Part shown: positions 3 to 61,190 of the stretch, one piece after another | Position numbering within the stretch: the stretch's first letter is position 1 | Layout of the letters: the number at the start of each line of letters is the position of its first letter | Source: Candidatus Woesearchaeota archaeon | GTDB taxonomy: Archaea; Nanobdellota; Nanobdellia; Woesearchaeales; SKIA01 | Length of the DNA: 64,000 bases | NCBI GenBank assembly: GCA_046704725.1 | Contig: JBJKRI010000008.1 | Location: 32,001 to 96,000, forward strand | Reading direction: 5' to 3' | Made by a program: the position numbers and the translations under genes | The notes under the pieces: model-generated | Database searches by the model: none | What the model was told of the DNA's origin: nothing | Seen by the model: the letters and a program-made list of their open reading frames with translations, nothing else

Positions 3-3000
3 GCCCTGAACGGCTGGACCTATAAGCCTTCAGACCTGTTCTTCAACGGGACCATAGACGACGTCTCGGTGTATGCACGCGATCTGAGCGCGCAGCAGGT
101 CGCCGCCCAGTACAATTCCGGCGCGCCACGTCACAACCTTACGGTCAGCCAAGAGCTCACTCCGAACGATCGATGGACCGTGGCCGTGACGCCCAACAAC
201 GGGGTGCGCGACGGGCCCACAGCGTACACGAACATGCTGCAAGAGTCGGGGCAGACCGTCTGCATCAACGAGACCGGCTACTGCTTCACCACGATTCAAG
301 CGGCCGTAGACAACGCGACCGCCGGACAAACGGTCGTCATCACGGACAGCGCCACGTACGACGAGAATGTCACGGTCGGAAAGGATCTCACCATCACGAG
401 CAACGGGACGGGGTACCCACTCGTCTACTTCGCGAACGGGACTGCGATCGACGCGGGAACAAACAACGTCACGCTCAAGCGCCTCCACATCCGAGTGAAC
501 GGGACGGCGAGCGGCATCGAAGCGGTGAAGATGGACTACGGGACCATCCGGAACGTCAAGTTCGACGGGAACATGGGGGCGAACAGCTACGGCATCTATT
601 GCGGCGCCCACGACGGGCTCATCAGCCTGACGGACGTGAACTTCACACCCTCGAACGTGACGAGCGCCATGGGCAAGTACTGCAGCTGGATCCTGAACCG
701 CGTCACCGTGAACGGCACGGTCACCGCGGACGCGATAGAGAAGAGCCAGGCGTACGATGCGAGCGTGCGGATCAAGAACTCCTACCTCAACGCGACGCAG
801 TACGCGGTCTACGGCAAGCCCACCAATTCCAGTATTAGCAACTCTACCTTGTACGCCAGCCAGTACAACGCCGCGGTCCTCGGGGTCAATGCGTCCATCA
901 CGGAAAGCACCATAGAGTCCTTCGCGAGCACCGCGCTGTATGTGGGCAATAGCAGCAGCATCACGTTCTCCACGATCACCGGCGGTGGCGGGCATGCATC
1001 GATAAACACGAATGGCGAGAGCCATTGGGGCATCACGGTCTCCGACAGCAACCTAACCTATGTGGAGTACAACGACTTCACCTATGCCTACAACCAGAAC
1101 TTCACGTTCATCAACACGACGCTCAGCTCGAGCGGCACCCCCACCGTGCTGATGACCTGCACCGGAGGCGAGTGCTACGCCTATTTCGCGAACCACTACT
1201 CCCTGCACGTCAATGACACAAGCGGCAATGATATCTCGGGGGCGACAGTGACCATACACGACAGCACCGGCAGGCTCATCGGCAGATGGACGACGGACGC
1301 GAACGGGAACATCCCGAACCAGAACCTCACCGACGCCCTCAAGAAGAACCTCTACGGGACGGCATCTACGGTGTCGTACTCCCCGTACGATGTCTACGTG
1401 TACAAGAGCGGCTATGCGTCGAGCGAGACGTCCGTGGACATGTCGAGCAACCAGCAGGACACCGTGACCCTCACGCATCAGCTCAGCTGCACGATGGTCG
1501 CATCGACGTCATGCACGAACGGCACCAAGTACCTGGGCGTGATGAACACGAGCGGCGGCTACGACAATGCGCACGCGCAATTATATCCGGACGGCTGGTG
1601 GAACACTAGCTGGGCCTACCGGGAGGAGATCACGTTCGACAACAGCGCGAGCAGCACCAACCTCACGGACTTCCCCGTCATGGTCGTGCTCAATAGCAGC
1701 GACATCAACTACGCGCACGTCGCCACCGGCGGAACGGACCTCCGCTTCGTGGACGGTGACGGATATACGAGCATCCCGTACCAGATCGAGAAGTGGAACG
1801 CGAGCGGGAACAGCTATGTCTGGGTCAAAGTGCCGCAGATAGACGCCGGGAGCACGACGGACCACATCTGGATGTACTACGGGAACTCGACAGTCAGTGA
1901 CGCCCAGAACGCCTCCGCGGTCTGGTCCGACAGCTACGTCGGCGTCTGGCACCTGTCCTCGAACAGCTCGGCGAACGACTCGACGAGCTACGGCAACAAC
2001 GGCGCCGTGATCGGGAGCCCGACGAATACGACGGGAGAGATGGACGGCGCGCTCCACTTCGACGGGAGCGGACAGTACATCGACATCCCCAACGCGTCAT
2101 CGCTCAACTTCGTGAACGCGTCGAACTACACCATCGGCGCGTGGGTCTATCCCGAGTGGACGGAGACCGCGAACCCCGACGCGATCGTCCAGCAACTGGA
2201 CGGGACGGGCAGCGGACGCACCCACCTGTTCATCGACTTGTCGAACACCTACTGCACGACAGGAGCGACGAAGCAGTACATGACGTATGTGGGGAACACC
2301 GCGACGTGCAGCAACGTCTCGGCCGTGAACAACAGCTGGGCGTACGTGGCAGAGACCGTCGTCGAGAACGGGACGAACGATGTCGTGCGCTTCTACGTGA
2401 ACGGCACGCTCGAGAAGACCACGAACGTGAACAGCGAGAGCAACCTCAACGGCTCGTGGCGCATCGGTAGGCACCGCACCTACACGACCTGGGACTTCGA
2501 AGGAAAGATCGACGAGGTCCGGATGTCCGACGTCCGCAGGAGCGGCGACTACATCAAGGCCGAGTATCTCGCCGGAACAGGACAGTTCGCGACGGTGGGA
2601 TCGGAACAAGTGCCGTCGGACGGCATCACCTACAACAACAGCCTGTGCTGCTCTACGGACCAGAACGGCACGCTCGGCACGAGCTGCTCGAGCGGGGACC
2701 AGTTCCTCTCGCTCTATTCGACGGACAACTCCCACGTGCAGGAGACGAGCGTCGGCACATACACCGTGCCCGTCTGCATGAGCTTCTCGGCGGGTACGGT
2801 GAGCTGCAGCTACCAGACCGGCTCGTGCTCGCAGAATAGCAACTGCGTCCTTTCCATGGCCTCGGCGGACAACAGCCACATCGGCGCGTGCGGAGAATAC
2901 AACATCAACGTGTGCTGCACCCTGCCGCCGACACTCACGAGCCTCTTGCTGAACGCTACCTCGACGCGGAACTGGACGACAGACGACTTCAACCTCTGGC

Positions 3001-4532
3001 CGCAGGGAGCGCAGGGGTACAGGACGATCATCTACGACTGGTATCTCAACGGCACGCCGTTCGCAATGCTCGACCTGTCGTTCGACACGAATGTGAGCGT
3101 CGCGACGACCGGTGCGATCAAGGACTACAGCGGTAACGGCCACAACGCGACGCTCGGCGGAGGGACCGTGGCCCGGATGCCCACCTGGAATGCGAGCGGC
3201 GCATCAGGAGGGGCATATCATTTCACGAACGGGACGTACATCGATGTGGGCGCCGTGGGCAACTACTCCCGCACCATCGTCTTCTGGCTCCACCCGGACA
3301 CCGCAATCACCGCGACCTCTCCCACACGGCAACTGATCGAGCTCGGAAAACACGTCGCTGACGACTTGGGAGTCCTCATGGGAAGCTCGACGAGCGCGCT
3401 CTCGAACGAGATTATCGAGGTGCGCAGCAGCGCAGGAAAGAGCGGTTGGTGCTCGAGCTCCGGCAGTATCTCGGCGGCCTGGCACCAGTTCGTCGCGGTG
3501 TGGAACGGTACGCGGTACGAGATATACGTGGATGGTGTGCGCAAGGACAATTGCTACCAGGGCACGTCGAGCATCATCAACGCGACCGACGTCTGGGTCG
3601 GGAACTGGCAAAGCGCGCTGAGCAGCGCCTCTAGCGGATTCAACGGTTCCATCGATGACGTACAACTGTTCAACCGATCACTGTCCGCATCGCAGATACA
3701 GAGCATGTACCACAGCGGCACACCATACATGCAGACGATGAAGAGCACCGAGCTCAGCGTGAACGACACGTGGTACGCGACAGGGACGCCGAACAATGGC
3801 TTCACTGACGGTCCGACGGTGACGAGCAACAGCATCACCATCGTTAACAACGCGCCGAACACGCCGACGTTGATGGAACCCGGGAACAACACGACAGTAA
3901 CCACTGCGACACCGTACTTCAACTGGACCAACAGCACTGACCCCAACGGTGATGCGGTCCACTACGAGATCAATATCACAGCCCCATCGGGCTGCGCAGC
4001 GCTTCCCGTGCGCAACGTCACGCCGAGTGAATACACGAGCGTGGACACATTGTGCACGGACAAGTCCTACTACTGGTCGGTGCGGGCCTGCGACAACCTC
4101 CAGTACTGTAGCCCGTGGACGCCGGAATGGAACTTCACGGTGACGAGCGTGGTGAGCATCGACTTTGTCACCAACAACACGGACTTCGGACAGATGGCGC
4201 CATCCACTGCTAGCGTCAACAATACTAACAGCACGCTCGACAACAGTCCCCTGCCGCTTGAGGTCAACAACACTGGGACGGTCGCGGTGAACCTCACCAT
4301 CAAGGCGCTCGGAGCGCTCTGGACGAACGAAGGCCTCAACACGACTTACTTCGAGTACGCGGACGAGAACAGCAGCGACTGGCAGAACGTCACGCTCAAC
4401 TACACGAACCTGACGACGAACCTGAGCGTCGCGCACACGCGGCAGATCGAGATTAACATCACGGTCCCCGTGAACGAGCCGAACGGCGCGAAGCAGAGCA
4501 CCCTAGAGGTGCTCGCAGGAGCGGCGCAATGA
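3..4532 (+). CDS. Giant secreted surface glycoprotein/adhesin, 5'-truncated by the window edge (LamG domains, beta-helix-like region, Cys-rich NAH-repeat domain, DUF2341, FN3-like domain, C-terminal pilin/WxL-like domain)
   Basis: The frame is open from base 3 (ALNGWTYKPSDLFFNGTIDDVSVYARDLS, a LamG C-terminal motif). Other motifs: WWNTSWAYR...DLRFVD...YVWVKVP (DUF2341); FEGKIDEVRMS and FNGSIDDVQLFNRSLS (LamG). N-x-S/T sequons are very dense. Confidence 0.85.
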   Translation, partial: ALNGWTYKPSDLFFNGTIDDVSVYARDLSAQQVAAQYNSGAPRHNLTVSQELTPNDRWTVAVTPNNGVRDGPTAYTNMLQESGQTVCINETGYCFTTIQAAVDNATAGQTVVITDSATYDENVTVGKDLTITSNGTGYPLVYFANGTAIDAGTNNVTLKRLHIRVNGTASGIEAVKMDYGTIRNVKFDGNMGANSYGIYCGAHDGLISLTDVNFTPSNVTSAMGKYCSWILNRVTVNGTVTADAIEKSQAYDASVRIKNSYLNATQYAVYGKPTNSSISNSTLYASQYNAAVLGVNASITESTIESFASTALYVGNSSSITFSTITGGGGHASINTNGESHWGITVSDSNLTYVEYNDFTYAYNQNFTFINTTLSSSGTPTVLMTCTGGECYAYFANHYSLHVNDTSGNDISGATVTIHDSTGRLIGRWTTDANGNIPNQNLTDALKKNLYGTASTVSYSPYDVYVYKSGYASSETSVDMSSNQQDTVTLTHQLSCTMVASTSCTNGTKYLGVMNTSGGYDNAHAQLYPDGWWNTSWAYREEITFDNSASSTNLTDFPVMVVLNSSDINYAHVATGGTDLRFVDGDGYTSIPYQIEKWNASGNSYVWVKVPQIDAGSTTDHIWMYYGNSTVSDAQNASAVWSDSYVGVWHLSSNSSANDSTSYGNNGAVIGSPTNTTGEMDGALHFDGSGQYIDIPNASSLNFVNASNYTIGAWVYPEWTETANPDAIVQQLDGTGSGRTHLFIDLSNTYCTTGATKQYMTYVGNTATCSNVSAVNNSWAYVAETVVENGTNDVVRFYVNGTLEKTTNVNSESNLNGSWRIGRHRTYTTWDFEGKIDEVRMSDVRRSGDYIKAEYLAGTGQFATVGSEQVPSDGITYNNSLCCSTDQNGTLGTSCSSGDQFLSLYSTDNSHVQETSVGTYTVPVCMSFSAGTVSCSYQTGSCSQNSNCVLSMASADNSHIGACGEYNINVCCTLPPTLTSLLLNATSTRNWTTDDFNLWPQGAQGYRTIIYDWYLNGTPFAMLDLSFDTNVSVATTGAIKDYSGNGHNATLGGGTVARMPTWNASGASGGAYHFTNGTYIDVGAVGNYSRTIVFWLHPDTAITATSPTRQLIELGKHVADDLGVLMGSSTSALSNEIIEVRSSAGKSGWCSSSGSISAAWHQFVAVWNGTRYEIYVDGVRKDNCYQGTSSIINATDVWVGNWQSALSSASSGFNGSIDDVQLFNRSLSASQIQSMYHSGTPYMQTMKSTELSVNDTWYATGTPNNGFTDGPTVTSNSITIVNNAPNTPTLMEPGNNTTVTTATPYFNWTNSTDPNGDAVHYEINITAPSGCAALPVRNVTPSEYTSVDTLCTDKSYYWSVRACDNLQYCSPWTPEWNFTVTSVVSIDFVTNNTDFGQMAPSTASVNNTNSTLDNSPLPLEVNNTGTVAVNLTIKALGALWTNEGLNTTYFEYADENSSDWQNVTLNYTNLTTNLSVAHTRQIEINITVPVNEPNGAKQSTLEVLAGAAQ

Positions 4533-5668
4533 GACTCTCCATCACGCTCTTGGTGCTGCTGTTTGCTGTTCCCGCCGTGACGGCGTTCGGCATCAGCCCC
4601 GCGACATATAGCATGCTGGGCACGGGAACGAGCAACTATACCCTACGCATCCTCAATCCGCAGCACGAGAGCATGCAACTGCAGATTATCGGCGTCGGCC
4701 AGGCGGCGCAGTTCCTGCACCCATCCAAGAAGTACGTCAATCTGGCCTCCTCAATCACGGAGATCGACGTGCCCGTCTCGCTCGTGGTGCCCGCATCCCA
4801 GTTGCCGGGCGAGTACTCCGGCGCGCTCATTGTCGAACAACTGCCATCGAGCGTCCAAGGCAAAGGATTCGTGAGCGCCGTTGCTGCGGTGCAGCAACGT
4901 GTCAATGTGCGTGTGCCTGCGGACGGGAAGTTCGTGGATGCGCACATCCTGACGTCCGTGGGTTCGACGCAGGGAACGCAGGTCGTGACAGTCGCGGTGC
5001 AGAACATCGGCACGGAGAACATCTCACACCTTACTTCGCACACGGATATCCGCGACCCATCCAACCAGCTCGTGGCGAGCATGAGCACGAAACAGGTCTC
5101 CTTGGCTGTGGGTGCGGACAAGAGCCTTTCCGGGCAATGGCATCCGCGCCTTCCGGGGACCTATACGGTGACCGCGACGGTCACCTACGACAATCGGTCG
5201 TACACGACGAACAGGACTATCCAGGTCGGCACGCTCGACGTGCGCGTCGGCACGCCGGTCTTCGGGAACTTCTCTTTGGGCAGTCCGGTACGCATCGACA
5301 CGCCGCTCACCAGCGAATGGAACCAGCGATTGTCCAGCGTGACAGGGACGATTGTCATGGACGGTCCGGGAGGGTACCACACATCGTTTCCCACGCTCTC
5401 GACGGACCTGCCGCCCGACGGCGACGGCACGCTCATCGGCTACTGGAACGGCGCGGGGGCTCCTGCGGGGCAATACAACATGACGTTGCAGGTGCATTTC
5501 GCCGACCAGACGCGCAACGAGACATACCGTGTGGGCGTGGGCGTGGACTGGATACGGATCGAGCAGGGAGGGCAGGCGTCTTTTGCGACTATCCTCTTGG
5601 CGCTCGCGGCGTTGCTCGTTCTCGTGGCTGCTTACTTCGCGCAAAGGTATATAAGGCGGCGTCCATGA
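4529..5668 (+). CDS. Secreted three-Ig-domain protein with C-terminal TM anchor (DUF916/DUF3324-like)
   Basis: Signal peptide ending AFGISP, beta-rich body with PGEYSG/PGTY motifs, C-terminal hydrophobic helix followed by RRRP. ATGA overlap with the giant gene. Confidence 0.75.
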   Translation: MRLSITLLVLLFAVPAVTAFGISPATYSMLGTGTSNYTLRILNPQHESMQLQIIGVGQAAQFLHPSKKYVNLASSITEIDVPVSLVVPASQLPGEYSGALIVEQLPSSVQGKGFVSAVAAVQQRVNVRVPADGKFVDAHILTSVGSTQGTQVVTVAVQNIGTENISHLTSHTDIRDPSNQLVASMSTKQVSLAVGADKSLSGQWHPRLPGTYTVTATVTYDNRSYTTNRTIQVGTLDVRVGTPVFGNFSLGSPVRIDTPLTSEWNQRLSSVTGTIVMDGPGGYHTSFPTLSTDLPPDGDGTLIGYWNGAGAPAGQYNMTLQVHFADQTRNETYRVGVGVDWIRIEQGGQASFATILLALAALLVLVAAYFAQRYIRRRP

Positions 5669-5687
5669 AACCGGACGGGGCTATCTC

Positions 5688-6065
5688 ATGCCGGAACGAA
5701 AGAAGACTATCCATCTGGTGATATTGTATGTCATCGTCATCGCGCTCGCGGTGTACGTGCTGTCAGGACAGAACGCTGCGCATCAGGCGGTCCCGACGAA
5801 TTCGAGCAATATGTCGTGGGTCTGTCTCAAGCAGGAGTGCGCCTCCTCGGTGCCTGGCGGGACCGTGTGGGCACAGCAGAACTGCGGTCTCGTCAATACG
5901 ACGAACGGCTCTGTCGAGGCGTGCAGGGTGACCATCAACGGCCAGACGCAGCTCGTGCGAAAAGACGCGCTGAATCTTTCGGTCATCCGGCAGTGCACGG
6001 AGTACCGCTGCCTCGAGGACGTGCAGGTCCGGCACGTCAACTACACGCTTCCAGGCGCGCAATAG
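5688..6065 (+). CDS. Small membrane-anchored Cys-rich protein
   Basis: N-terminal TM helix, six Cys in the extracellular part, TATAAG about 35 nt upstream. Confidence 0.75.
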   Translation: MPERKKTIHLVILYVIVIALAVYVLSGQNAAHQAVPTNSSNMSWVCLKQECASSVPGGTVWAQQNCGLVNTTNGSVEACRVTINGQTQLVRKDALNLSVIRQCTEYRCLEDVQVRHVNYTLPGAQ

Positions 6066-6089
6066 GGCTTCACGCCGGGAACAGATATG

Positions 6090-6097
6090 TTTAAATA
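6090..6097 (+). promoter_or_regulatory. TATA box (TTTAAATA) for the 6133/6366 unit
   Basis: Archaeal TATA consensus in an AT-rich gap about 36 nt before ATG 6133. Confidence 0.55.
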
Positions 6098-6132
6098 GCA
6101 GTATAGAGAAAATCACTGGATAAGGATAACTC

Positions 6133-6351
6133 ATGGCAGCGGACATCAGCAATAATGCGGTGGCGGTCCTGCTGGTATTGGTGATTGTCGTGGCCGCGCT
6201 CGGCACTTGGGCGTTCCTCACGGCCTTCCAGCCGGTGTCGCAGGCAGCCCCGCAGGCGAGCAATGCGAACGTCCACTTGAGCATCTACCACCAACCCGCT
6301 CCAGAGCAATCCAGCAGTCAGGCGTCAGTGGCGCTCAAGATCGCAACATAA
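6133..6351 (+). CDS. 72-aa membrane-anchored protein (ISNN-TM, two short beta-strand motifs)
   Basis: MAADISNNAVAVLLVLVIVV N-terminus is paralogous to the next gene. Confidence 0.75.
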   Translation: MAADISNNAVAVLLVLVIVVAALGTWAFLTAFQPVSQAAPQASNANVHLSIYHQPAPEQSSSQASVALKIAT

Positions 6352-6365
6352 GGAGGTTCAATAGA

Positions 6366-7025
6366 ATGGCAGAAATCTCGAACAAGACCTTAGCGCTGCT
6401 CGTCGTGGCCGCGCTCGTGGTGGTCGTCGTGACCACCAGCATCCAGCTCAACAAGCTCAACACGCTCCAGTTCGGCCCGTCCGGCTTCGCAACCTCGGGC
6501 ACCGGGCGCGTCAACCTGACGATCGCCTCGTCCCTGAACATCGAGGTCGACTCCAATAACAACACGATTGACTTCGGCACCTGTACGCCGGCAGCCACGC
6601 TCTCGCCGTGGATCGACAGCAACTCGAGCGTGTCGAACACGACGATTTGCAACGGCACCGCCGCGTCGGGCCGCCAGGGCATCCAGATCAACAACATCGG
6701 CAACGTGAACGCGAACGTGACCGTCGTCGGCGAGTGTACGCCCGCGGCGCTCCTTCCGGAAGCGTCGGGCACCAGTAACCAGTTCCAGGTCTGGATCGCG
6801 AACTGCACGGGAGGCACCCAGAACCTGAACTCGTACACCTCGCTGTCCACCACGCCGATCATCGCGTGTGGGAACATGACGACGGGAACGTCCGGCGGCA
6901 ACGGCAGCTTCTGGATGTACGCGCGCGTCAAGATCGACTCGGACACGCTGCCAGCACAGAGCTGTGGCGCGGTGCCGCACGACTCCGACCAGCTCACGTT
7001 CAGCGCGACATCGAACGTCGGCTAG
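6366..7025 (+). CDS. Putative major pilin/WxL-like surface subunit
   Basis: True start ATG 6366 follows SD AGGAGGT. Sequence: MAEISNKTLALLVV-TM-GFAT-GRVNLTI...IDFG...INNIGNVNANVTV. T-rich terminator follows. Confidence 0.7.
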   Translation: MAEISNKTLALLVVAALVVVVVTTSIQLNKLNTLQFGPSGFATSGTGRVNLTIASSLNIEVDSNNNTIDFGTCTPAATLSPWIDSNSSVSNTTICNGTAASGRQGIQINNIGNVNANVTVVGECTPAALLPEASGTSNQFQVWIANCTGGTQNLNSYTSLSTTPIIACGNMTTGTSGGNGSFWMYARVKIDSDTLPAQSCGAVPHDSDQLTFSATSNVG

Positions 7026-7032
7026 GCCGATA

Positions 7033-7060
7033 TCTTTTTATTCTCTTTTCCGGGTTTTTT
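7033..7060 (+). terminator. Oligo-T archaeal terminator candidate
   Basis: TCTTTTTATTCTCTTTTCCGGGTTTTTT immediately after the stop at 7025. Confidence 0.5.
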
Positions 7061-7064
7061 CCCT

Positions 7065-8204
7065 ATGCGGATAGCCCTCTTGCTTCTCTGCGCCCTGATG
7101 GCGCTCCCACTCGTCCATGCTATCGGCATCACGCCGCCGAGCGCGCATATCGATTTCACACCCAACCAACAGGGATCCTTCGATGTCCTGGTGATGAATT
7201 CTCGGCCGTTCAGCATCACCGCAGGAGTCAACATCACCGGGGACTTGGCTCGCTACTTCAACGCCACAGGACCGAAGATCGGTGCCCGCGGGAGCGCGAC
7301 GTCGACGATCACATATAGTCTGCCGGCCGATATCGATCCCGGCCTGCATCGGCAGTTCATCTATTACACGGAGGACTTCTTCGACCCGAACGCCGGCTCG
7401 TTCGCCGCCCGCACGAGCGTCGGACTGACTGTGGACGTCTGGAAGCCCTATCCTGGCAAGTACGCGAAGCTCACGCTCGAACCACGCAACGTCCCGAAGG
7501 GACAGAAGACCGACGTGCATGTCACGATCGACAGCAAGGGGGACCAAGCCGTCACAGGAGATGTGAATCTCCGTATCCTGGACGCGTCGGGAGCGCTCAT
7601 CGACTCGTACGTGGTGCCCGGATTCAGCGTCGGGGCGAACACGAACCGCGGACGCTACGTGCAGGTCAACAGCCAGGACTACAAGCCCGGCAAGTACACC
7701 GTGAAGGGCAGCTATGACTACGGGGCGGGCGTCGCCACGGACAGCAAGACGCTCAAGATCGGCGAACGGACGATCATCATCGACAACACGTCCACCGCCG
7801 TCTATCTCGACCAGCCCGTCAACAAGTTCACCGTGACCGTCGAGAGCATGTGGAACCAGCCCCTCGACGATGTGGCGGCCACCTTCGCTCTGGGGGCGCA
7901 CACCGGCAAGACGCCGAGCGTCACGCTGCCCGCTTTCGGCTCGCAGCAGCTCGTCGGATACTGGGACACGGACAAGGCGCTCGCGCCCGGTAACGGCACA
8001 GTCCTTGTCACCGCCACCTTCCGGAACGGCACGCCCGTGTCGCGCACGTTCCCCATCACCATCTACAACCAGACGCCGCACCCCCAGAAGGAAGCGCCCG
8101 CGACGATCACCCTCGGACTGACCGACGTGCTGTTTGTCGCCCTGATGGTCCTGCTGCTCCTCGCGTTCGGCGGCTATCTCTGGCACATCCACGCACGCTC
8201 ATGA
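7065..8204 (+). CDS. Secreted three-Ig-domain protein with C-terminal TM anchor, paralog of 4529-5668
   Basis: AIGITPP N-terminus, PGKY motifs, ESMWNQ/GYWD matching SEWNQ/GYWN of the paralog, same length (379 aa). Confidence 0.75.
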   Translation: MRIALLLLCALMALPLVHAIGITPPSAHIDFTPNQQGSFDVLVMNSRPFSITAGVNITGDLARYFNATGPKIGARGSATSTITYSLPADIDPGLHRQFIYYTEDFFDPNAGSFAARTSVGLTVDVWKPYPGKYAKLTLEPRNVPKGQKTDVHVTIDSKGDQAVTGDVNLRILDASGALIDSYVVPGFSVGANTNRGRYVQVNSQDYKPGKYTVKGSYDYGAGVATDSKTLKIGERTIIIDNTSTAVYLDQPVNKFTVTVESMWNQPLDDVAATFALGAHTGKTPSVTLPAFGSQQLVGYWDTDKALAPGNGTVLVTATFRNGTPVSRTFPITIYNQTPHPQKEAPATITLGLTDVLFVALMVLLLLAFGGYLWHIHARS

Positions 8205-8608
8205 AGAAGCGCTCTGTCATCATCCTGGCCATCGTCATCTTCCTCGTGACAGCATCGATCGTCTCGCTCGTGTACCAGTACGAGCAGGGATACTTATTCT
8301 CGCACGTGCAGGAGATGCCGTACCTCTTCTACGTCAACCAGACGCCTGGCATAGACGTCCGGCACGACATCCTTCGCATGGGGCAGATCGCGTGGGGCGC
8401 CCGCACCACGCGTGAGGTGACCATCAGCGATCCAGGGGCGCACACAGTGCTCATCCGCGTCTTCGGCAAGGGGGCTGGCATCCTTTACGCCGATCCCTCG
8501 GAGCTCAACCTGACGAATGGCACGGCGAACGTCACCTTCATCGCCGAGGCCGCTCCAGACACTCCTTATGGACGCTATGACGGCGTGGTCCGCTTCTACT
8601 TCCATTGA
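8201..8608 (+). CDS. Small membrane-anchored Ig-like protein (minor subunit-like)
   Basis: N-terminal TM helix; GIDV..DILRMG..PDTPYGRYDGVVRF beta-sandwich pattern; ATGA overlap. Confidence 0.7.
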   Translation: MKKRSVIILAIVIFLVTASIVSLVYQYEQGYLFSHVQEMPYLFYVNQTPGIDVRHDILRMGQIAWGARTTREVTISDPGAHTVLIRVFGKGAGILYADPSELNLTNGTANVTFIAEAAPDTPYGRYDGVVRFYFH

Positions 8609-8678: not shown

Positions 8679-9152
8679 GTGGAGCTGGGAGCGCTGCTGC
8701 GCCATCCGGGAGTGCGGGACGTCATCGAGACGGACAAGGCACTGTTCATCCTCACGGACGCGCCGAAGACGCTCCCGCCGATATATAGCGACAGAGAGGT
8801 CGTGGCGCTTAGACCGGAGGAAGCCCTCGCGAGCGAACGGCTGCCGGAGCTGCTTTCTGGCATAAGCCATAAGAAGGGACGCCTCGCAGAACGGTCCGGA
8901 ATGCGCGGTTGGGAGCTCTACGAATTCGATCTTTCCGGATTGCCTGCGAGCGGAAAGCAATCCTTCGCCCACGCACTATACGGCACCGGCGGACGGGCGA
9001 GCGAGCTCGGACGCCTTGGCGGGCAGCGGCTCGGGCGCAGCGCGGTATTGGTCCCGCGCGGCAATGCCAGGACATTCGAGGAATGGCTCTCACACAAAGG
9101 GGCGCGATGGACGCGGAAGAGCGTCCTCGTGGAGGAGAAGGATGCGGCTTGA
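8679..9152 (+). CDS. Degenerate nucleotidyltransferase-family protein with C-terminal ferredoxin-like (Cas2/PaaX-like) domain
   Basis: C-terminal LYEFDLSGL...FAHALYG...LGGQRLGRSAVLVP...FEEWL pattern, as I recall it from archaeal MNT-fused proteins. No GS/DxD motif in the N-terminal part. Confidence 0.5.
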   Translation: MELGALLRHPGVRDVIETDKALFILTDAPKTLPPIYSDREVVALRPEEALASERLPELLSGISHKKGRLAERSGMRGWELYEFDLSGLPASGKQSFAHALYGTGGRASELGRLGGQRLGRSAVLVPRGNARTFEEWLSHKGARWTRKSVLVEEKDAA

Positions 9153-11304
9153 TGACAGGACCGTCAAGGTCCTCTGGGTGGCGTTCATCATCCTCGCGGC
9201 GGTCATCATGCTGCAGAACCTCATCATCCTGTTCGCCGTGCCGCCGCCCACAGCGACGCCGGCGGGCACCGCGACCGCGCGGGTCAACCTCTGCGTGGAC
9301 AATCCCCCGCACTGGCTCAACCCAGTCTCGTGCGCTGACGCGCACGCGCTGCAGGCATACAGCTGCGACGTGAGCGCGATCGACAACGACACCGGACAGG
9401 TGATCGTCGGGTACAACGCGACGCTCATCAATGGGCCGAGCGCCGGCGCCCCCTTGTTCGAGAACATCTCGCGCAACGGAACGCTAAGCTTCAACGCGAC
9501 GACCGGCCAGGTCGGCAACTACACGGTGTCCCTCGAGGCGACGGACAACGCAACGTGTCCCTTGTCGGGAAACACCACCTTCAATCTGACCATCCTTCCC
9601 GGGACGGGGCCGCCGATCCTCATCAAACCAATACCCAATAGCACGTGGCAGAAGAACACCATCCTCATCCCGTACAACCTCAACGACTATTTCGTGGATC
9701 CGGAAGGGGGGACGTTGCTGTTCAGGGCGGCGGGAAACACCAATATCAAGATATCCATCGCGGCCGACGGGACGGTGACCCTCCAGCCAGCGAACGGCTA
9801 CTGCGGGCAGGAGATCGTCTTGTACACCGCGACGAACTCCGTAGGCTCGACGAACAGCAACTTCGTCACGCTCAACGTGACCTGCCCGCAGCAGAGCAGC
9901 AGCAGCGGAGGGAGCACCTCTTCCGGAGGCGGCGGTGGAGGCGGCGGATACGCCTTGCCGCAGGCCACCTGCTCGCAGAGCTACTACTGCTACCCCTGGG
10001 ACACGTGCCAGTACACCAAGGCCGTGAGCGCGACGGGAGACAACTACACCGTGAACATCACCGGTGTGCAGGGAAGCCAAATCTACACCGTGGAGGGGCC
10101 GTTGCCGGTCAACACGAGCCTCTACTACACGGGCTACCAGTCACGCAAGTGCATCGATACCAACGAGTGCAAGCCCGGATACAATGTCTATGTGCGCAAC
10201 TGCAGCTACAAGCCGAGCTGCCATGACCATATCCAGAACCAGGACGAGACGGGTGTGGACTGCGGCGGCGTGTGCGGACCCTGCAACACCTGCACCGACG
10301 GAATCCAGGACGGCCAGGAGACTGGCGTTGATTGCGGCGGACCGTCGTGCAAGCCGTGCTACTCGTGCACGGACGGCAAGATGGATGGGAAAGAGCTCGG
10401 CGTGGACTGCGGCGGCCCGGACTGCCCCGCGTGCGCGACGTGCTTCGACGGCATACAGAACCAGGGAGAGACTGGCGTTGATTGCGGCGGGCCGTGCACG
10501 CCGTGCGCGCAGATGCAGACGCCGAAGGGGCAGAACGGCCTGACGCCCCTACAGGTCGCCTTGCTGTCGGCCATCGCGCTCTTGCTGCTCATCATCGGAG
10601 CCACCGTGCTCTTGCGACGCGCGCTGCAGGCGTGGCTGTCCGCGCTCGCGCTGCGCTACAAGAAGCGCAACAGGGTCACGCTCATCGACGCGGATACCCG
10701 CGAATCCCTGCTCTCGGAGCTCGCGGCGCTCGAGCGGACCATCGACGGGCGCGAACCCCTGCCGCGGCAGGCAGCGATCGGCGGACTGTTACGCAAATAC
10801 CTGCACGCCGCGCTCGGTGTCGAGACCGAGGCAGATAGTCAGGTGGTGGACGCCGCACTGACCACGCAGCATGTCAGAGAGGACCTGCGGAGCATCCTCG
10901 CGTCGCTGTATAGGCGCGTGTTCCAGACGGAGTTCACGGACGCTGCGCTCCCGCTCACGTTCCTGCACGCGCTGTTGCATGAGATGCGGTTCATCGTCTA
11001 TGAGACTGGCGTGACCACTCTGAGCGACGCGAAACGGATGCGGGACCAGGCAGCGTCTCTCCCGGCCGCGCCAGAGCGCGTCTCCTCCGAGGATGACATC
11101 TATTCCGCGCTCGGGCTTGGCGTCGAACGTCTCCGCTTCCGGCAGTTCCTGCTCTCCGAGCGGCTCTACGCGCAGATCGAAGCGGCGTACGGGGCTGCGG
11201 GCGAGGCCTCGAAGCGCCGCGTGTATCCTGATGCGGTGCGCTTCAACCGCGAGATGGCCTTCGCGTCGCGGCAGAGCAAGCGTCTGATAGAACGGCTTCA
11301 ATAA
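9142..11304 (+). CDS. Membrane-spanning surface protein: TM, cadherin-like Ig domains, Ser/Gly linker, four DCGG Cys repeats, TM, cytoplasmic helical domain
   Basis: Likely start ATG 9142 (MRLDDRTVKVLW) after GGAGGAG. The repeat CxDxIQNQxETGVDCGGxC occurs four times. Confidence 0.8.
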   Translation: MRLDDRTVKVLWVAFIILAAVIMLQNLIILFAVPPPTATPAGTATARVNLCVDNPPHWLNPVSCADAHALQAYSCDVSAIDNDTGQVIVGYNATLINGPSAGAPLFENISRNGTLSFNATTGQVGNYTVSLEATDNATCPLSGNTTFNLTILPGTGPPILIKPIPNSTWQKNTILIPYNLNDYFVDPEGGTLLFRAAGNTNIKISIAADGTVTLQPANGYCGQEIVLYTATNSVGSTNSNFVTLNVTCPQQSSSSGGSTSSGGGGGGGGYALPQATCSQSYYCYPWDTCQYTKAVSATGDNYTVNITGVQGSQIYTVEGPLPVNTSLYYTGYQSRKCIDTNECKPGYNVYVRNCSYKPSCHDHIQNQDETGVDCGGVCGPCNTCTDGIQDGQETGVDCGGPSCKPCYSCTDGKMDGKELGVDCGGPDCPACATCFDGIQNQGETGVDCGGPCTPCAQMQTPKGQNGLTPLQVALLSAIALLLLIIGATVLLRRALQAWLSALALRYKKRNRVTLIDADTRESLLSELAALERTIDGREPLPRQAAIGGLLRKYLHAALGVETEADSQVVDAALTTQHVREDLRSILASLYRRVFQTEFTDAALPLTFLHALLHEMRFIVYETGVTTLSDAKRMRDQAASLPAAPERVSSEDDIYSALGLGVERLRFRQFLLSERLYAQIEAAYGAAGEASKRRVYPDAVRFNREMAFASRQSKRLIERLQ
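10216..10506 (+). repeat. Four intragenic Cys-rich repeats (CxDGxxxxxExGVDCGGxC)
   Basis: In-frame repeats of about 72-75 nt; GAGACTGGCGTTGATTGCGGCGG occurs at 10318 and 10468. Confidence 0.8.
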
Positions 11305-11518: not shown

Positions 11519-11634
11519 CTCGCGTCAATATCCCTCTGCCTGACGCGCTGCACAAGCGGCTCCGTATCAAGGCCGCCACAGAAGGGAAGACGCTCAAGGA
11601 ACTGGTCATCGGCATCCTGGAGGAGAGGGCATGA
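11515..11634 (+). CDS. Ribbon-helix-helix (CopG/Arc-like) protein, 39 aa
   Basis: MTRVNIPLPDALHKRLRIKAATEGKTLKELVIGILEERA; ATGA overlaps at both ends, GGAGG SD upstream. Confidence 0.8.
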   Translation: MTRVNIPLPDALHKRLRIKAATEGKTLKELVIGILEERA

Positions 11635-14600
11635 AGCGCGCGGTCCTACTGGTACTGCTGCTGGCCATCCCGCTCGCCGCGGCGCAGCTGCCGACCACAG
11701 TGACTGTCAGCCCGTCGGCGAACGCGACGACGACAAGCACCCTGCAATGCCTGGTGAATGCCACCGGAGGAGGGGCGCTCACCGCGAACGTGACCTGGTA
11801 CCTGAACGGCACGCTCCACGGAGCGGACGACCAGACACTCACATTGACGAGCGGCACGCAGAACGGAACCAATTCAACCGGCGATGTCAAGCCGTACGAG
11901 ACAGTGAAGGGAGAGCTCTGGACGTGCCAGGCGACCGTCACGAACGGTACGGACACGAACATCACGAACAGCTCCGCGATCACCATCGAGGACAGCCCCC
12001 CGATCGTGACGTACCCCATCGTTCAGCAGAACGCGACAGAAGACCACCCGTTCGGACCGATCACCGCAACGGCGTACGATCCTGACGGCGATCCGATAAC
12101 CTGGATATCGCAAGACCAATCGAAGGGACAGTATTCGGGAACGCAACTGTTCACGATACAGTCCGACGGGACCATCAGCTTCACCGCGGACCAGCCAGAG
12201 AACGGGAACCACAGCATGGCGCTCATCGCCACGGACGGGACCCTCTTCGGCGGTCGGGTGGTCGTCTTCGACCTGCTGCCGTTCGACGACCCGCCGATCC
12301 TCTCAGACATCCAGAACCAGACGGCGAACGTCACCATCCCATTCAGCCTTATCGTCAACGCGTCGGATGAGGAGAACGACACCCTCGCGTACAACATCAG
12401 CAGCGACATCCCATCGCTGAGCATCGCCCAAGTGGATAACACCCATGCGAATATCAGCTTCACTCCCACGTACGCGGAACTAGGGAACCACACCGTGACG
12501 GTCACCGTCTACGAGACGAAGAACGAGAGCAAGAACGACACGAAGACCTTCGTGATCGATGTGTACTCGAACAACAGGCCTCCAGCCATCGACACGATAC
12601 TGTACCAGAACACCAGCCAAGGCGGCGTCCTGAACCTCACAGTGAACGCCACGGACAACGACACGACAAACACGCTCAACTTCAGCGTGATCGGGAACTG
12701 CCCGATCACGAACCCCTGGACGATCACGACACTGAGCACCAACCATTCCGACGCCATCGGACAGATCTATGTCGCGAACGTGACGAACGACCAAGTCATC
12801 TGCCGAAACGTCACACTCATGGTCCGTGACTACGTGGGAACGACCCCGCTCACGAACGACACGCGAACGCTTGTGCTGAACATCACGAACGTCAACGACC
12901 CGCCGACGGTCCACGAGCTCTCGGGATACGCGGGGAACACGGAATCGCAGCAGAACATGAGTAACCTGACGGCGAGCACGGGACTGCCATTCGTCTACCA
13001 CGTCAACGCCACAGACCCCGACACGCTGACCTACGAAGGAGAGGTGCTCAACTACAGCGACAACACCACGCTGTTCACGATCAACAACTCCACAGGCCTC
13101 ATCAACTTCACGCCGAACCAGAGCGAGGTGGGAGACTATGCGATCAACATCACGGTGATGGACGACCAAGGACTGTGGGACAGCAGGAACCTGACCCTGC
13201 ACGTCGTGAACAATACCTTCCCGACACTGATCCCCGTACCGAACATGATGTGCCAAGAAGACGCGAACTGCAGCGTCTCGCTAGAGGCCTACGACCCAGA
13301 CCCGGGAGAGAACGAAACATTCACCGTCAGGAACGTGAACTACAGCACGAACAGCAACAGCACCGTCGACCCGACGTTCACGCTCATCAAGACCTCCTGG
13401 AACACCAGCACCGTCTGGAAGAACTTCACGAACAGCATGGTGGGCAACTACACCTACAATATCACCGTCTCGGACCATTACGGTGCGACCGACAGCCAAT
13501 TATGGAACCTGACCGTGAACAACACGAACGACCCGCCCACCTATGACGAGAACTTCACGTTGCCTTCACCCATCGTGGCGATGCATCCGATGACGCTCCT
13601 CGTGAACGCCTCGGACAAGGACTTCCTCAACGGGTTCGAGAACCTCACGCTGACCGTCCAGCTCAACGGACCGAACCCGAGCCTGCTCAACGTGACGAAG
13701 CTGTCGAGCATGCAATGGAAGGTCGTGGCGGATCCCAGCACCGGCGATATCGGGCAGTACAACGCGTCGTTCGTTGTGACGGACATCGCGGGAGCGAACG
13801 CGACCAGGAACCTCAGCTTCACCGTCTACAACAAGAGCCGCCCACCCGTCATCCTGACAGTATATCCGTTCTGGAACTCCTCGACCAACCAGACGCAGCT
13901 CTCCTTCGCGAACGCGAGCCCGTTCTCGGGATCCACGAGCATCAACAGCAGCGAAGCGTCCACGCTCCGGCTGAACCTCACCTATATGGATCCGGACACG
14001 GCGCTAGGGAACCTGACAGTGACATGGACAGGGGACAACAAGACGCTCAAGACCGTCGCGGGGACCTCGGACCCCGCGCTCACCCTCAACTATGGGTATT
14101 TCGACGCGGGGACGCACATCTACAAGGTCAACGTCAGCGATAACCGTTACGAGAGCGATACCTTTCAATGGAACGTCACGGTGGCCAACGTGAACCGCGC
14201 ACCCTATCTCGTGCACAACATCACCAACTTGACGATCAACCAGACGACGACCATCACGGATTACATGAACGCCTTCCTGGACCCCGATGACGACCTCAAC
14301 AGCAACGGTGTCCTCGACCCGAACGAGACCAATCACCTCACCTACACCTACTCGTCATCGCCGTACCTCAAGATATCGTTCATCTGGCCCAACACGACGC
14401 TCACGCCGCTCAAGACAGGGACAGCGCACATCGTGTACACCGCAACGGACTCTGGCGGACTGTCCGCGAAGAGCAACAACGTGACCTATACGGTCATCAT
14501 GCCGCCCCAGCAACAGCAACAGACGAGCTCATCGAGCAGCGGAGGCGGCGGCGGAGGAGGCGGGGCCAGCGTCTCGACACCCGTGCCCGTGCCGACCATA

Positions 14601-16956: not shown

Positions 16957-17849
16957 TCAAGGAGTTCCATCCGTCCCTTCTGCCGCAGATACGGGAGCTC
17001 TCCATCAAGGCGAACAGGAAGTTCCTCGCTCGCACCTTGACAGGGAACTGGCTGTCGAGCCTCAAAGGGCGCGGCATGGAGTTCAGCGATTACCGCGCGT
17101 ACACGAGCGGGGACGACGCGAGCCTCATCGACTGGAAAGCCTCGCTTCGCGCACGAAAAATCCTCGTGAAAGAACTGACCGAGGAACGGAACCTGAACGT
17201 GTATATCCTCCTGGATGTGTCTAACAGCATGCTCTACGGCAGCGGAGAACTGCTCAAGGCGGAGTTCGCGGCGGAGGTGGTGAGCAGCCTTTCATTCGCG
17301 GCGTTGCACGCGGGGGACGCGGTCGCGCTGGCGATGTGCGCCGACACGATGAAGCATTACCTCCGGCCGTCCATCGGCATGCGCCAGCACAGCATCCTGC
17401 TCAACCTCATCGCGAACGGCGACAACTGGGGGGGAAAGTTCGACTTCGGAGCCGTCATGAACCAGCTCGTGAGCGTGACGCGCGGGCGAGGCGTCATCAT
17501 CATCGTCTCCGACTTCCTCGGCATGGAGGACCGCTGGCGCGGATACCTCGAGAGCGCCTCGGGACGCTTCCAGATGATCGGCGTGTGCATCAGGGACCCA
17601 CGCGACCGTCGTCTTCCAAAGCACGCCGGGGAATACGTGCTCGAGGACCCGTACTCGGACGAGAAGATCGTCATAGACTGCGCCGTGTACGCGGAGCCGT
17701 ACCGACGCTACGTCGAGGACGAGGAGGAGCGCATCCGCAGCGCCTTCCGGCAGGTGCGCGGCGATGTCATCTTCCTGGAGGTCGGGACGGATTTCGTGCG
17801 GCCATTGATGCGATTCTTCCACAAGCGGGAATTGCGGGTGGAGAACTGA
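16953..17849 (+). CDS. DUF58 domain protein
   Basis: GRGMEFSDYRAYTSGDDASLIDWKAS, LDVSNSM; follows MoxR. Confidence 0.9.
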   Translation: MIKEFHPSLLPQIRELSIKANRKFLARTLTGNWLSSLKGRGMEFSDYRAYTSGDDASLIDWKASLRARKILVKELTEERNLNVYILLDVSNSMLYGSGELLKAEFAAEVVSSLSFAALHAGDAVALAMCADTMKHYLRPSIGMRQHSILLNLIANGDNWGGKFDFGAVMNQLVSVTRGRGVIIIVSDFLGMEDRWRGYLESASGRFQMIGVCIRDPRDRRLPKHAGEYVLEDPYSDEKIVIDCAVYAEPYRRYVEDEEERIRSAFRQVRGDVIFLEVGTDFVRPLMRFFHKRELRVEN

Positions 17850-61136: not shown

Positions 61137-61190
61137 GCACTCGCGAGGGGGAGTGCAATATCTATAAAGCGCAGTCCTCGGAAAGTGCGT

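Follow-up and report, generated by a model that had tools for sequence, protein, structure and literature searches.

Chaperone-usher pili (type 1, P, CFA/I and Csu) are organelles of Gram-negative bacteria, and among the archaea the threads of Sulfolobus are another donor-strand fibre. For DPANN archaea, contact with other cells is essential, and little is known of how they attach. In Bacillota, WxL clusters are described as building a chaperone-guided donor-strand pilus, and the authors, who used a Pfam-based screen for WxL/Elr systems, found it in Bacillota only and state that it is confined to this group (bioRxiv 10.64898/2026.10.17.759780). The Pam pilus of CPR bacteria is presented in a second 2026 preprint (PMC13278184), so that each of the two systems, as described in these preprints, is limited to one bacterial group. 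Homologues of AbpA, CanX and thread subunits are reported mostly from Thermoproteota (PMC12518558). Our literature searches turned up no account of a system of this kind from Woesearchaeota or from DPANN archaea in general.

In the present study we analysed a locus within the window, the whole stretch of 64,000 nucleotides. The sequence-only reading had offered two interpretations, a csc/WxL-like system or a donor-strand pilus; because of the 2026 preprint on the WxL pilus these are now one system, and the interpretation is supported by homology, by synteny and by folds, both of pilins and of WxLIP/chaperone-usher chaperones. We propose, with moderate confidence, that the locus encodes an usher-less donor-strand surface fibre, assembled at the cytoplasmic membrane by tethered chaperones, which would be an archaeal counterpart of the WxL/Elr and Pam systems with a 72-aa membrane-anchored, strand-only terminator. 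The homologies, folds, conserved gene order, co-occurrence and motifs are shown here by computation; the steps of assembly are proposed.

Results

Table 1. Features of the locus, in window positions
Feature	Positions	Strand	Basis
Giant surface adhesin, C-terminal 1,509 aa, proposed tip adhesin	3..4532	+	ORF extent, Pfam
Pilin-like C-terminal domain of the giant adhesin	4119..4529	+	hhalign A5 vs A3
379-aa chaperone-like protein 'A' (4529)	4529..5668	+	AF2, Foldseek/VIA, profile
125-aa protein, N-terminal TM helix, Cys-rich ectodomain (5688)	5688..6065	+	Neighbourhood comparison
TATA-box-like TTTAAATA	6090..6097	+	Pattern match; 35 nt upstream of ATG at 6133
72-aa protein, proposed membrane-anchored donor-strand-only base/terminator (6133)	6133..6351	+	Profile A3, motif counts
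Shine-Dalgarno-like AAGGAGGT	6350..6357	+	Pattern match; 9 nt before ATG at 6366
219-aa pilin-like protein, proposed major fibre subunit (6366)	6366..7025	+	AF2, Foldseek, VIA
Terminator-like hairpin 7017-7031, then three T-runs	7017..7060	+	Between pilin-like gene and 7065
379-aa chaperone-like protein 'B', paralogue of 4529 (7065)	7065..8204	+	BLASTP, alignment A4
135-aa protein, N-terminal TM helix, one PapD/ASH-like Ig domain, conserved core member (8201)	8201..8608	+	hhalign

The giant adhesin ends in a pilin-like domain

The giant open reading frame starts upstream of the window (at G000:C8:15572) and extends over ~6,986 codons. Its product has an N-terminal TM/signal segment, and the part lying within the window contains, according to Pfam, Laminin_G_3 (E 4.8e-27, 3 stretches), DUF2341 (E 1.8e-15) and a sialidase N-terminal lectin-like domain (E 1.1e-6). 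When the profile built from adhesin C-termini (A5, 10 sequences) was aligned by hhalign to that of the 6366 family (A3, 149 sequences), the comparison gave a probability of 99.5% (E 2.8e-23, 146 columns), window positions ~4119-4529 being paired with residues 46-218 of 6366, which are its whole mature part. The resemblance that had been noticed in the sequence between the end of the giant and the small protein is thus confirmed as homology of the last ~137 aa to the whole mature 6366, and this argues for the fibre; pairwise BLASTP joins the N-terminal half only (30% identity, 80 columns, E 6e-5). The final strand of an FN3-like domain lies immediately before this domain, which no helix precedes, and from alignment A5 we propose that it would be an acceptor lacking a usable free donor strand. 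Large proteins sharing this terminal domain in related loci range from 313 to 3,206 aa.

The 219-aa protein weakly resembles donor-strand pilins

The 219-aa protein opens with a conserved N-terminal motif and TM helix (residues 1-30), after which a linker with T-G-x-A-T at residues 39-43 leads to the conserved strand G47-x-V-x-L-x-I53; the remainder is a beta-sandwich of Ig-like type (residues 59-216) with conserved cysteines. Residues 30-58 (about 29) have no secondary structure in the AF2 monomer model (pLDDT 77.7), and few parts of the family are as well conserved as the strand 47-53 (G47 96%, I/V53 96%); because this strand is highly conserved yet unstructured in the monomer, and because its motif recurs in the 72-aa family, it favours the fibre. 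The subunits begin with a nearly invariant motif E/D-I-S-N-K followed by the conserved TM helix, and this motif may act in sorting or processing as a new kind of signal. Conservation of the TM segment across the family is unusually high (N6 in 149/149 sequences, A16 93%, T24 92%), and by column conservation the helix goes far beyond an ordinary signal peptide. This counts against the fibre, the cleavage of 6366 being a prediction: if the helix is not cut the protein stays in the membrane and cannot form a long fibre.

Nearly all the top Foldseek rows for the 6366 model are donor-strand pilins (E from 1.7e-3), and the best VIA match is FimG (Z 7.2, rmsd 3.1, 119 of 132 aligned), a Z below 8 possibly reflecting just a common arrangement. 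The pilins matched by Foldseek/VIA are FimG, CupE, CfaB, Csu, PapA, TasA, AbpA, cannulae and TLP-1. VIA gives Z 5.9-6.8 for TasA, TLP-1, AbpA and cannula subunits; matches within the TasA/AbpA/cannula jelly-roll group are 8aur (Foldseek E 5.9e-3), 9ikj and 9ikk (both Z 6.5), 7ueg (Z 5.9) and 9h8b (Z 6.6), the last two being, with 7uii (Z 6.6), moderate matches to archaeal fibres. The fold comparison points weakly to donor-strand pilins, in line with the earlier reading and with Z at most 7.2, and since most Foldseek/VIA rows are such pilins it supports the fibre. Against it are the middling values themselves (Z at most 7.2, Foldseek E at least 1.7e-3) and the ASH/MSP/PapD-like Ig domains, which score as high as pilins. 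None of the matches listed for the model is a WxL chain of 9i25, and a WxL-like fold is still compatible with it.

The 6366 family comprises 2,404 cluster representatives at 50% identity (E<=1e-3), all of them 'hypothetical' where named. No Pfam or NCBIfam family matches 6366, the NCBIfam search gave no match for any core protein of the cassette, and a PDB sequence search with the pilin profile returned two spurious rows and no true match. A sequence link of the 6366 family to WxL, TasA or chaperone-usher pilins was not found, and this counts against the fibre; a link between 6366 and AbpA/cannula subunits was not found either. Pfam WxL (PF13731) has no match in 6366 or the adhesin at E<=0.1 and 0 matches at E<=1 in a six-frame search of the genome, and neither WxL nor any TasA-like family nor Peptidase_M73 is among the matches listed for the 149 members (25 of 40 families). 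In a language-model Atlas the nearest named cluster is WxL for 6366 (0.80) and WxL and SCPU for the adhesin domain (0.76), values below the level that counts as evidence. By the Pfam definition, membership in the WxL family fails.

The 379-aa proteins look like membrane-tethered chaperones

As the sequence-only reading held, 4529 and 7065 are paralogous TM proteins with three Ig domains (BLASTP, E 1e-7, 318 columns at 25% identity). In the AF2 model of 4529 (pLDDT 92.5), the helix of a signal peptide is followed by beta-sandwich domains at about 21-130, 136-233 and 238-345, three in all, and the chain ends in a TM helix (352-376), and 7065 has the same layout of three domains and TM; a hydrophobic stretch and a basic tail close nearly all of the 26 aligned members. 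The best solved match of the 4529 model is WxLIP of Enterococcus faecium (9i1y_A, first among 48,161 chains; Z 13.2 and rmsd 9.2, with 208 residues aligned across two domains, model residues 18-237), followed by the chaperone-usher chaperones FimC (Z 11.7), CfaA (11.2), YadV (11.0) and SafB (11.0). Foldseek places 9i25_C and 9i1y_A at E 3e-9, and the family profile matches the EfmWxLIP1 PDB sequence over both domains (E 2.2e-4, profile positions 35-251). Both the two-domain chaperone fold of the WxLIP type and the C-terminal TM helix are found in 4529, and this ranking, WxLIP and then chaperone-usher chaperones, is a further reason for the fibre. The 379-aa proteins thus have the look of chaperones tethered to the membrane, a correction to the earlier view of them as plain TM anchors.

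Pfam likewise gives weak matches of 4529 to WxLIP_HBD and CARDB, both at E 7.3e-4 and below cut-off. On PF11797 (DUF3324) 4529 scores 19.9 bits, the cut-off being 28.9, and has no PF06030 match, while 7065 reaches E 0.088 on PF11797; the pair of DUF916 (PF06030) and DUF3324 (PF11797) above Pfam thresholds is found in neither protein, and the best PF06030 match of a genome search (E 0.62) lies elsewhere in the genome. Across the 26 members, WxLIP_HBD (PF11797) matches nine (best 3.4e-8), PF06030 (DUF916) one (E 0.016) and the generic Ig-like domain CARDB twelve. That CARDB matches the family as well as WxLIP_HBD does is counted against the fibre, and so is the third Ig domain, which WxLIP does not have. 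In a quick tree of the 379-aa copies 23 of 25 pilin-associated sequences fall in one half and 14 of 14 adhesin-associated ones in the other; this separation of types A and B speaks for the fibre, and its weak support (SH-aLRT 81) and long branches against it.

Small proteins of the locus

The 72-aa protein carries the N-terminal motif and TM helix of 6366 followed by two short V-x-L-x-I-type strand motifs, with no Ig domain and no LPxTG; positions 1-54 of the pilin profile A3 align to it at E 3.7e-7. The motif G-x-[VIA]-x-[LVIF]-x-[VIL] is present in the tails of 20/27 proteins of its family (shuffled sequences, mean 1.0, maximum 5); in the copy of the window A or N replaces G, and this copy is counted among the 7 misses. 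The protein probably has a structural role as a membrane anchor that offers a strand only, held by its N-terminal TM helix; an LPxTG/sortase-anchored terminator such as ElrB is not found in it.

The 135-aa protein had been credited with a module similar to that of 6366. This is weakly true (hhalign of its family, A6, with the 6366 family: probability 59%, 35 columns), but domain 1 of the 379-aa family is a better match (probability 96%, E 4.6e-9, 66 columns), and on these profiles 8201 has its nearer kin in the chaperone-like family, the pilin-like module being more remote. The 125-aa protein has no Pfam or NCBIfam family, and relatives were seen only in L022 and L023 among the 28 fetched loci; it is lineage-specific and stands outside the conserved core.

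Conservation of the cassette

The genes of the cassette are arranged in the order adhesin, 379A, 72-aa protein, pilin-like gene(s), 379B and 135-aa protein. Related loci were collected by genome searches, a search with a 6-sequence alignment alone giving at least one locus, and the 379-aa relatives were taken from their neighbourhoods; a word-based search with 4529 as query matched nothing besides 4529 itself. The cassette was found again in 28 fetched loci of several orders (21 + 7, the 7 being from other orders of the class). A 379-aa relative stands beside the pilin-like gene in 27/28, a 72-aa relative directly upstream of it in 25/28, a 135-aa relative near it in 23/28 (17/21 + 6/7), and a large protein with the terminal pilin-like domain occurs in 15/28 (9/21 + 6/7). 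Pilin-like copies occur in tandem, with up to 7 profile matches per genome. The pilin-like and 379-aa families are both present in 194 of 401 genomes of the phylum; 10 have the pilin-like family without the other, 18 the 379-aa family without the pilin-like one, and 179 neither. The genes are thus syntenic across orders and co-occur, as the csc/WxL-like or pilus reading had required, and this conservation favours the fibre.

Around the cassette, many genes of the neighbourhood code for Ig-rich TM-anchored surface proteins. Comparison of 29 loci revealed no conserved signal peptidase family and no conserved ATPase or platform family. Archaeal SPase I is encoded twice in the genome, one of the genes being ~34 kb downstream and inside the window, and there is a single A24 prepilin peptidase on another contig (C7).

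At the gene junctions, the ATG of 4529 overlaps the TGA of the giant adhesin gene and that of 8201 the TGA of 7065 (ATGA in both cases), two details that the sequence-only reading had not listed. The promoter, ribosome-binding and termination signals attributed earlier to the 6133/6366 unit are present, as pattern matches only. The terminator-like site is the only one that the scan found between 4000 and 9500, shuffled sequences having a mean of 3.7 sites; its position after the pilin-like gene is taken in favour of the fibre.

Discussion

In the mechanism that we propose, three products would be exported, namely the giant adhesin, the pilin-like protein of 219 aa and the 72-aa protein, and the pilin-like protein would be cut near T-G-x-A-T, freeing its N-terminal strand G47-x-V-x-L-x-I53. 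Anchored in the membrane through the C-terminal helix, the 379-aa proteins would each bind a client whose Ig fold is incomplete, presumably the adhesin C-terminal domain for type A and the pilin for type B. The 72-aa protein, having a TM helix and a strand motif and no acceptor domain, would occupy the groove left open at the end, halt elongation and fasten the fibre to the membrane, with the 135-aa protein as a putative conserved accessory.

The same homologies and synteny also fit a static surface platform, in which the 379-aa proteins hold the adhesin and 6366 domains by strand complementation without any polymer, 6366 being a small lectin or spacer. Such a model was put forward for WxL clusters in 2023 (PMC10599100), and a polymer of 6366 is only predicted; however, the bacterial model has been revised to a pilus, on the basis of cryo-EM and biochemistry as described (bioRxiv 10.64898/2026.10.17.759780), and a 1:1 platform leaves the conserved free N-terminal strand, the strand-only 72-aa protein and the tandem pilin-like copies unexplained. 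We consider the platform unlikely. Less probable still is a non-polymeric envelope, where 6366 and 6133 would keep the helix as a signal anchor and form, with the 379-aa proteins, a cell coat or S-layer-associated layer. The conservation of N6, A16 and T24 in the TM segment suggests a lasting helix-helix contact, and the Ig-rich TM-anchored proteins encoded nearby suit such a layer, yet it explains neither a giant adhesin ending in the same domain without a preceding helix nor the dominance of pilins among the fold matches.

A chaperone-free matrix fibre of 6366 alone, similar to TasA, AbpA or cannulae, with the 379-aa proteins as unrelated adhesins sharing the operon, agrees with the TasA, TLP-1, AbpA and cannula fold matches and with the account that archaeal donor-strand fibres known so far need no chaperone (PMC12518558). 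We judge it very improbable, in view of the near-perfect co-occurrence and adjacency of the 379-aa family and its likeness to WxLIP and chaperone-usher chaperones; in addition, a signal peptidase family is not conserved in the loci and Peptidase_M73 is missing among the matches listed. A type IV-like pilin, with the hydrophobic N-terminal helix as filament core and the Ig domain as decoration, was rejected as scarcely credible, despite a helix followed by a beta-sandwich and one prepilin peptidase in the genome, because the N-terminus of 6366 has no class III cleavage site ([KR]-[GA], basic-Gly/Ala), ~29 residues (30-58) lacking secondary structure lie between the helix and the domain, none of the ATPase or platform families is conserved among 29 loci, the peptidase is on another contig, and in the adhesin the domain is C-terminal and not preceded by a helix.

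Returning to the donor-strand fibre, we advance a broader and more tentative claim, to which we give slightly less than an even chance: in about half of the sampled genomes of the class holding Woesearchaeales (Nanobdellota), the cassette would encode a true, very distant homologue of the WxL/Elr pilus and the first chaperone-assisted archaeal pilus, displaying adhesins thousands of residues long that would attach the cell to a host or a surface, using an undescribed N-terminal sorting signal and ending in a membrane-anchored strand-only peptide. If this were true, membrane-tethered chaperone pili would be a solution shared among Bacillota, CPR and DPANN, or one inherited in common or exchanged between them. 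The cassette would tie the giant adhesins of DPANN to a concrete assembly machine, and several large protein families that lack annotation would gain a role. An archaeal counterpart with a recognisably WxLIP-like chaperone would also broaden the picture of donor-strand pilus evolution, and show that Pfam-defined screens overlook such systems.

Among known systems, AbpA bundling pili (PMC9245690) and Pyrodictium cannulae (PMC12518558) share with this locus the archaeal host and, as reported, Ig-like/jelly-roll subunits joined by donor-strand complementation (here proposed), whereas they are described as chaperone-free and without a tip adhesin (PMC12518558). [quoted passage not shown] The Pam pilus, compared through published descriptions, is similar in its ultra-small episymbiont-type host without outer membrane, in Ig-like pilins joined by donor-strand exchange (here proposed), in a pair of chaperones (PamC, PamD), both with a TM helix at the C-terminus, and in a proposed membrane-tethering terminator without trans-envelope machine (PMC13278184). 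It differs in that its pilins (PamA/B) are two-domain and reported as exclusive to CPR, and its tip is described as a single-domain pilin, with no giant adhesin (PMC13278184).

The gene logic matches that of the Elr pilus, as described for Enterococcus faecalis and other Bacillota, and this is itself an argument for the fibre. ElrA corresponds to the giant, a tip adhesin with variable N-terminal payload and C-terminal pilin-type domain, a feature found here; ElrD/C to 6366, a small protein made of that domain and an N-terminal strand; ElrE/WxLIP to 4529 and 7065, Ig-domain chaperones with a C-terminal TM helix; and ElrB to 6133, a small strand-only anchor, an usher being absent from both systems. 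Unlike the Elr pilus, the present system resides in an archaeon of Nanobdellota, its pilin-like domain has no detectable WxL sequence signature, it has two specialised chaperone-like paralogues each with a third Ig domain, its anchor is an N-terminal TM helix where ElrB is described with LPxTG/sortase, and its pilin and anchor share an invariant N-terminal motif, accompanied by an extra conserved 135-aa TM protein.

Gene organisation of the cassette

The genome under study, G000, comprises 1.18 Mb in 8 contigs with 60% G+C and is 99.7% complete by score, the window being G000:C8:32001-96000. The archaeal markers inside the window (Rpb7/RpoE-like, S24e), the source names of the related proteins, which are all called 'hypothetical protein' and come from 'Candidatus Woesearchaeota archaeon', 'Nanoarchaeota archaeon' or 'archaeon', and the Atlas taxa (Nanobdellota) group it with the DPANN archaea, and we infer its placement in Woesearchaeales. 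Proteins of the cassette are named here by their start positions. ATGA overlaps couple the giant adhesin gene to 4529, and 7065 to 8201. The TATA-like, SD-like and terminator-like signals described from the sequence alone lie at the positions claimed, as pattern matches only. Profile searches of the genome returned one pilin-like gene (6366), one 72-aa gene (6133), one adhesin with the terminal domain, and two strong plus one weaker third 379-aa gene.

Genes of the cassette and further features of G000 (window positions unless a contig is given)
Feature	Position	Strand	Remarks
Giant adhesin ORF, last 1,509 codons	3-4532	+	opens upstream; total ~6,986 codons; N-terminal TM segment
379-aa gene, type A (beside adhesin)	4529-5668	+	
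125-aa gene	5688-6065	+	TM helix and Cys-rich part; kept only in closest relatives (3 loci including the window)
72-aa gene	6133-6351	+	
219-aa gene (pilin-like)	6366-7025	+	
379-aa gene, type B (beside pilin-like gene)	7065-8204	+	
135-aa gene	8201-8608	+	
157-aa gene beside cassette	8679-9152	+	kept only in closest relatives (2 loci)
Large Ig-repeat surface proteins (two)	9016-11304; 11631-15272	+	Big_9, He_PIG, tandem-95 repeats; C-terminal TM segments
Bat-like operon	15934-18808	+	MoxR-type AAA ATPase (AAA_3, E 1.7e-60), DUF58 (1.5e-41), BatA/VWA protein
Archaeal type I signal peptidase	42282-43046	+	TIGR02228, 65.4 bits; weak SipW-like match, E 1.9e-7
Third, weaker 379-aa relative	61185-62297	+	profile E 9.1e-10, covers domains 1-2
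Adjoining ORF	62451-63998	+	off window end; 516 aa, open-ended; Ig-like (Big_15-like, E 0.0046)
Second archaeal type I signal peptidase	G000:C5:210315-210545		
Prepilin (A24) peptidase, single	G000:C7:28264-28614		on another contig

The adhesin ends in a pilin-like domain

The sequence-only reading had matched the C-terminus of the giant adhesin to the mature part of 6366. A pairwise comparison supports this match modestly (E 6e-5) and covers just the N-terminal half; families were therefore built. The 6366 family gave 15 word-based matches and 2,404 representatives (50% identity, E<=1e-3), 1,678 of them at E<=1e-10, and a conserved domain, roughly 140 aa long, closes large proteins in related loci (alignment A5). 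Alignment of A5 with A3, which comprises 149 sequences from the 6366 family, by hhalign (99.5% probability, E 2.8e-23, 146 columns, 6366 residues 46-218) bears out the match, and the likeness therefore reflects true homology. The stretch of the adhesin that aligns with the 6366 strand forms the last part of the FN3-like domain before it.

Among 149 representatives, the pilin-like family has an almost invariant N-terminus (E/D3, I4, S5 in 92%, N6 in 100%, K/R7, L9, A10), followed by a conserved helix (A16 93%, S20 81%, T24 92%) and then by T39-G40-x-A42-T43 and G47-x-V/A-x-L-x-I/V53. In the whole genome this type of start is confined to 6366 and 6133, and the A3 profile aligns 6133 over profile positions 1-54 (E 3.7e-7). 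In the 72-aa family, the tail holds the strand motif of the pilin-like family once or twice: 20 of 27 members show the strict pattern, 8 of them at least twice, compared with an average of 1.0 and at most 5 of 27 among shuffled tails, and 37 of 44 pilin-like proteins have it too. Protein 6133 of the window is one of the 7 misses, A or N replacing the G of the pattern, and T-G-x-A-T was not seen in the 72-aa proteins on inspection by eye. The unusual pilin-like N-terminus might be processed by one of the two signal peptidases of the genome.

Additional pilin-like paralogues, often located 3' of the 135-aa gene and with N-termini departing from E-I-S-N-K, occur in five related loci (L028 12520-13164, L032 11849-12487, L037 11729-12355, L041 9694-10941 and L022 9170-9760) and are possible minor subunits.

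Structural models

The model of 6366 (pLDDT 77.7) consists of a helix (residues 6-29), a segment devoid of secondary structure (30-58) and a beta-sandwich (59-216). A Foldseek search of this model against the PDB gave no match at E<=1e-3; the rows that rank highest, with E 1.7e-3 and weaker (probability 0.85-0.99), belong nearly all to donor-strand subunits, among them CupE, FimA, CfaB, Csu, TasA, AbpA, cannulae and TLP-1a. Re-alignment with VIA placed FimG first (Z 7.2, rmsd 3.1, 119 aligned), followed by the Hyper2 tube (6.8), CanA and cannulae (6.6), TLP-1 (6.5) and CsuA/B (6.3). A search independent of Foldseek reached Z 6.7 at best, ASH/PapD-like and MSP domains being mixed among its matches. 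Thus the comparison with pilins, proposed at the outset as a check, yields by both Foldseek and VIA a modelled Ig fold that is compatible with a pilin, short of proof.

The modelled fold of the 379-aa proteins gives clearer evidence. The two were described as paralogues with three Ig-type domains and a TM anchor, and indeed they match each other (E 1e-7). In the AF2 model built for 4529 from the 26-sequence alignment A4 (pLDDT 92.5), a signal helix precedes three beta-sandwich domains, and a TM helix forms the C-terminus. The Enterococcus faecium WxLIP (9i1y_A; Z 13.2, rmsd 9.2, 208 positions aligned in domains 1-2) ranks first among 48,161 chains, followed by the two-domain chaperones of chaperone-usher systems FimC (Z 11.7), CfaA (11.2), YadV (11.0) and SafB (11.0); many single-domain CARDB-like matches also lie at Z 11-12. 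Foldseek retrieved, at E 3e-9 and below multi-Ig ciliary proteins, 9i25_C ('WxLIP bound to long WxL') as well as 9i1y_A. The A4 profile matches the EfmWxLIP1 sequence across both domains (E 2.2e-4), and Pfam assigns WxLIP_HBD to 9/26 and CARDB to 12/26 family members. The 379-aa protein is probably a distant homologue of the WxL-system chaperone.

For 8201 the earlier statement has to be amended: a module similar to that of 6366 had been claimed, and the alignment of its family (A6) reaches the 6366 family at a probability of only 59% over 35 columns, being closer to domain 1 of the 379-aa proteins (96%, E 4.6e-9).

A quick tree built from 45 379-aa proteins places adhesin-associated members in one half (14/14) and pilin-associated members in the other (23/25). 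The labels change 7 times, the shuffled mean being 17.5, and none of 200 shuffles gave so small a number; the SH-aLRT of the split is only 81 and the branches are long.

Conservation of the cassette

Of 401 genomes sampled from the phylum, 204 contain matches to the A1 profile of the 6366 family; the positives listed are all from the same order or class, and many genomes have 2-7 matches. The 379-aa profile (E<=1e-15) matches in 212, including the unpublished G242 and G395. Both families are present in 194 genomes, the pilin-like family only in 10, the 379-aa family only in 18 (including G242 and G395) and neither in 179; related genomes are not independent, so no probability is attached to this co-occurrence. 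Neighbourhoods were taken from 20 top matches on long contigs together with L001, and from 7 loci of five other families of the class; having been picked by score and contig extent, they are not a random sample. After classification of six-frame ORFs by jackhmmer, a 379-aa relative adjoins the pilin-like gene in 20/21 same-order loci (the miss being L030) and 7/7 other-order loci, a 72-aa relative lies immediately 5' of it in 20/21 and 5/7, a 135-aa relative lies 3' of the second 379-aa gene in 17/21 and 6/7, and a large protein with a terminal pilin-like domain has a 379-aa gene directly 3' in 9/21 and 6/7, several misses falling at contig ends. The gene set co-occurs and its order is kept in the fetched loci, the point for which the sequence-only reading had suggested a synteny survey. 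All-against-all clustering of the neighbourhood ORFs revealed no further core family: no ATPase, platform protein, usher or peptidase.

Large Ig-repeat surface proteins form a family found near the cassette in 14/29 loci. The Bat-like operon adjoins the surface-protein genes on their downstream side, and its MoxR-like family appears in 6/29 neighbourhoods. Near the third 379-aa relative no pilin-like gene was detected by profile search; this gene and its adjoining ORF may represent a second, divergent display system. The genome has a single A24 peptidase gene, so a type IV filament system is probably present in the organism as well.

Proposed mechanism and comparison with known systems

Homology, synteny and folds support in substance the original reading of a csc/WxL-like or donor-strand pilus. 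We lean, with some reserve, towards an archaeal donor-strand pilus with a membrane-tethered chaperone and the giant adhesin at its tip. In this mechanism the N-terminal helix of the pilin-like protein would be cleaved, the two chaperone-like proteins would serve separate clients, 6133 would act as the terminator and 8201 would be an accessory protein.

According to a bioRxiv report (10.64898/2026.10.17.759780, October 2026), ElrD, made up of a WxL domain and an N-terminal strand, polymerises through donor-strand exchange, ElrE (DUF916/DUF3324, C-terminal TM helix) is the membrane-anchored chaperone, the tip is modelled as ElrA, a payload with a C-terminal WxL domain and no donor strand, and the terminator as ElrB (strand only, LPxTG anchor); its screen, based on Pfam and covering 4,698 genera from 81 phyla, places WxL operons in Bacillota only. 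In other sources, a static platform was proposed for WxLIP in 2023 (PMC10599100), known archaeal donor-strand fibres are described without a chaperone (PMC12518558), and a second preprint describes, for CPR bacteria, donor-strand Pam pili that have a pair of TM-anchored chaperones and are said to be exclusive to that group (PMC13278184). Our search of the DPANN literature found no such system. The present locus fails the Pfam definitions of the WxL system: Pfam WxL has no match in the window proteins or the genome and does not appear among the families listed for the pilin-like members, and in the window proteins WxLIP_HBD is below cut-off and WxLIP_PGBD absent. The genome search likewise gave no usher or PapD_N match. 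The locus is predicted to work like the WxL system; current definitions do not include it.
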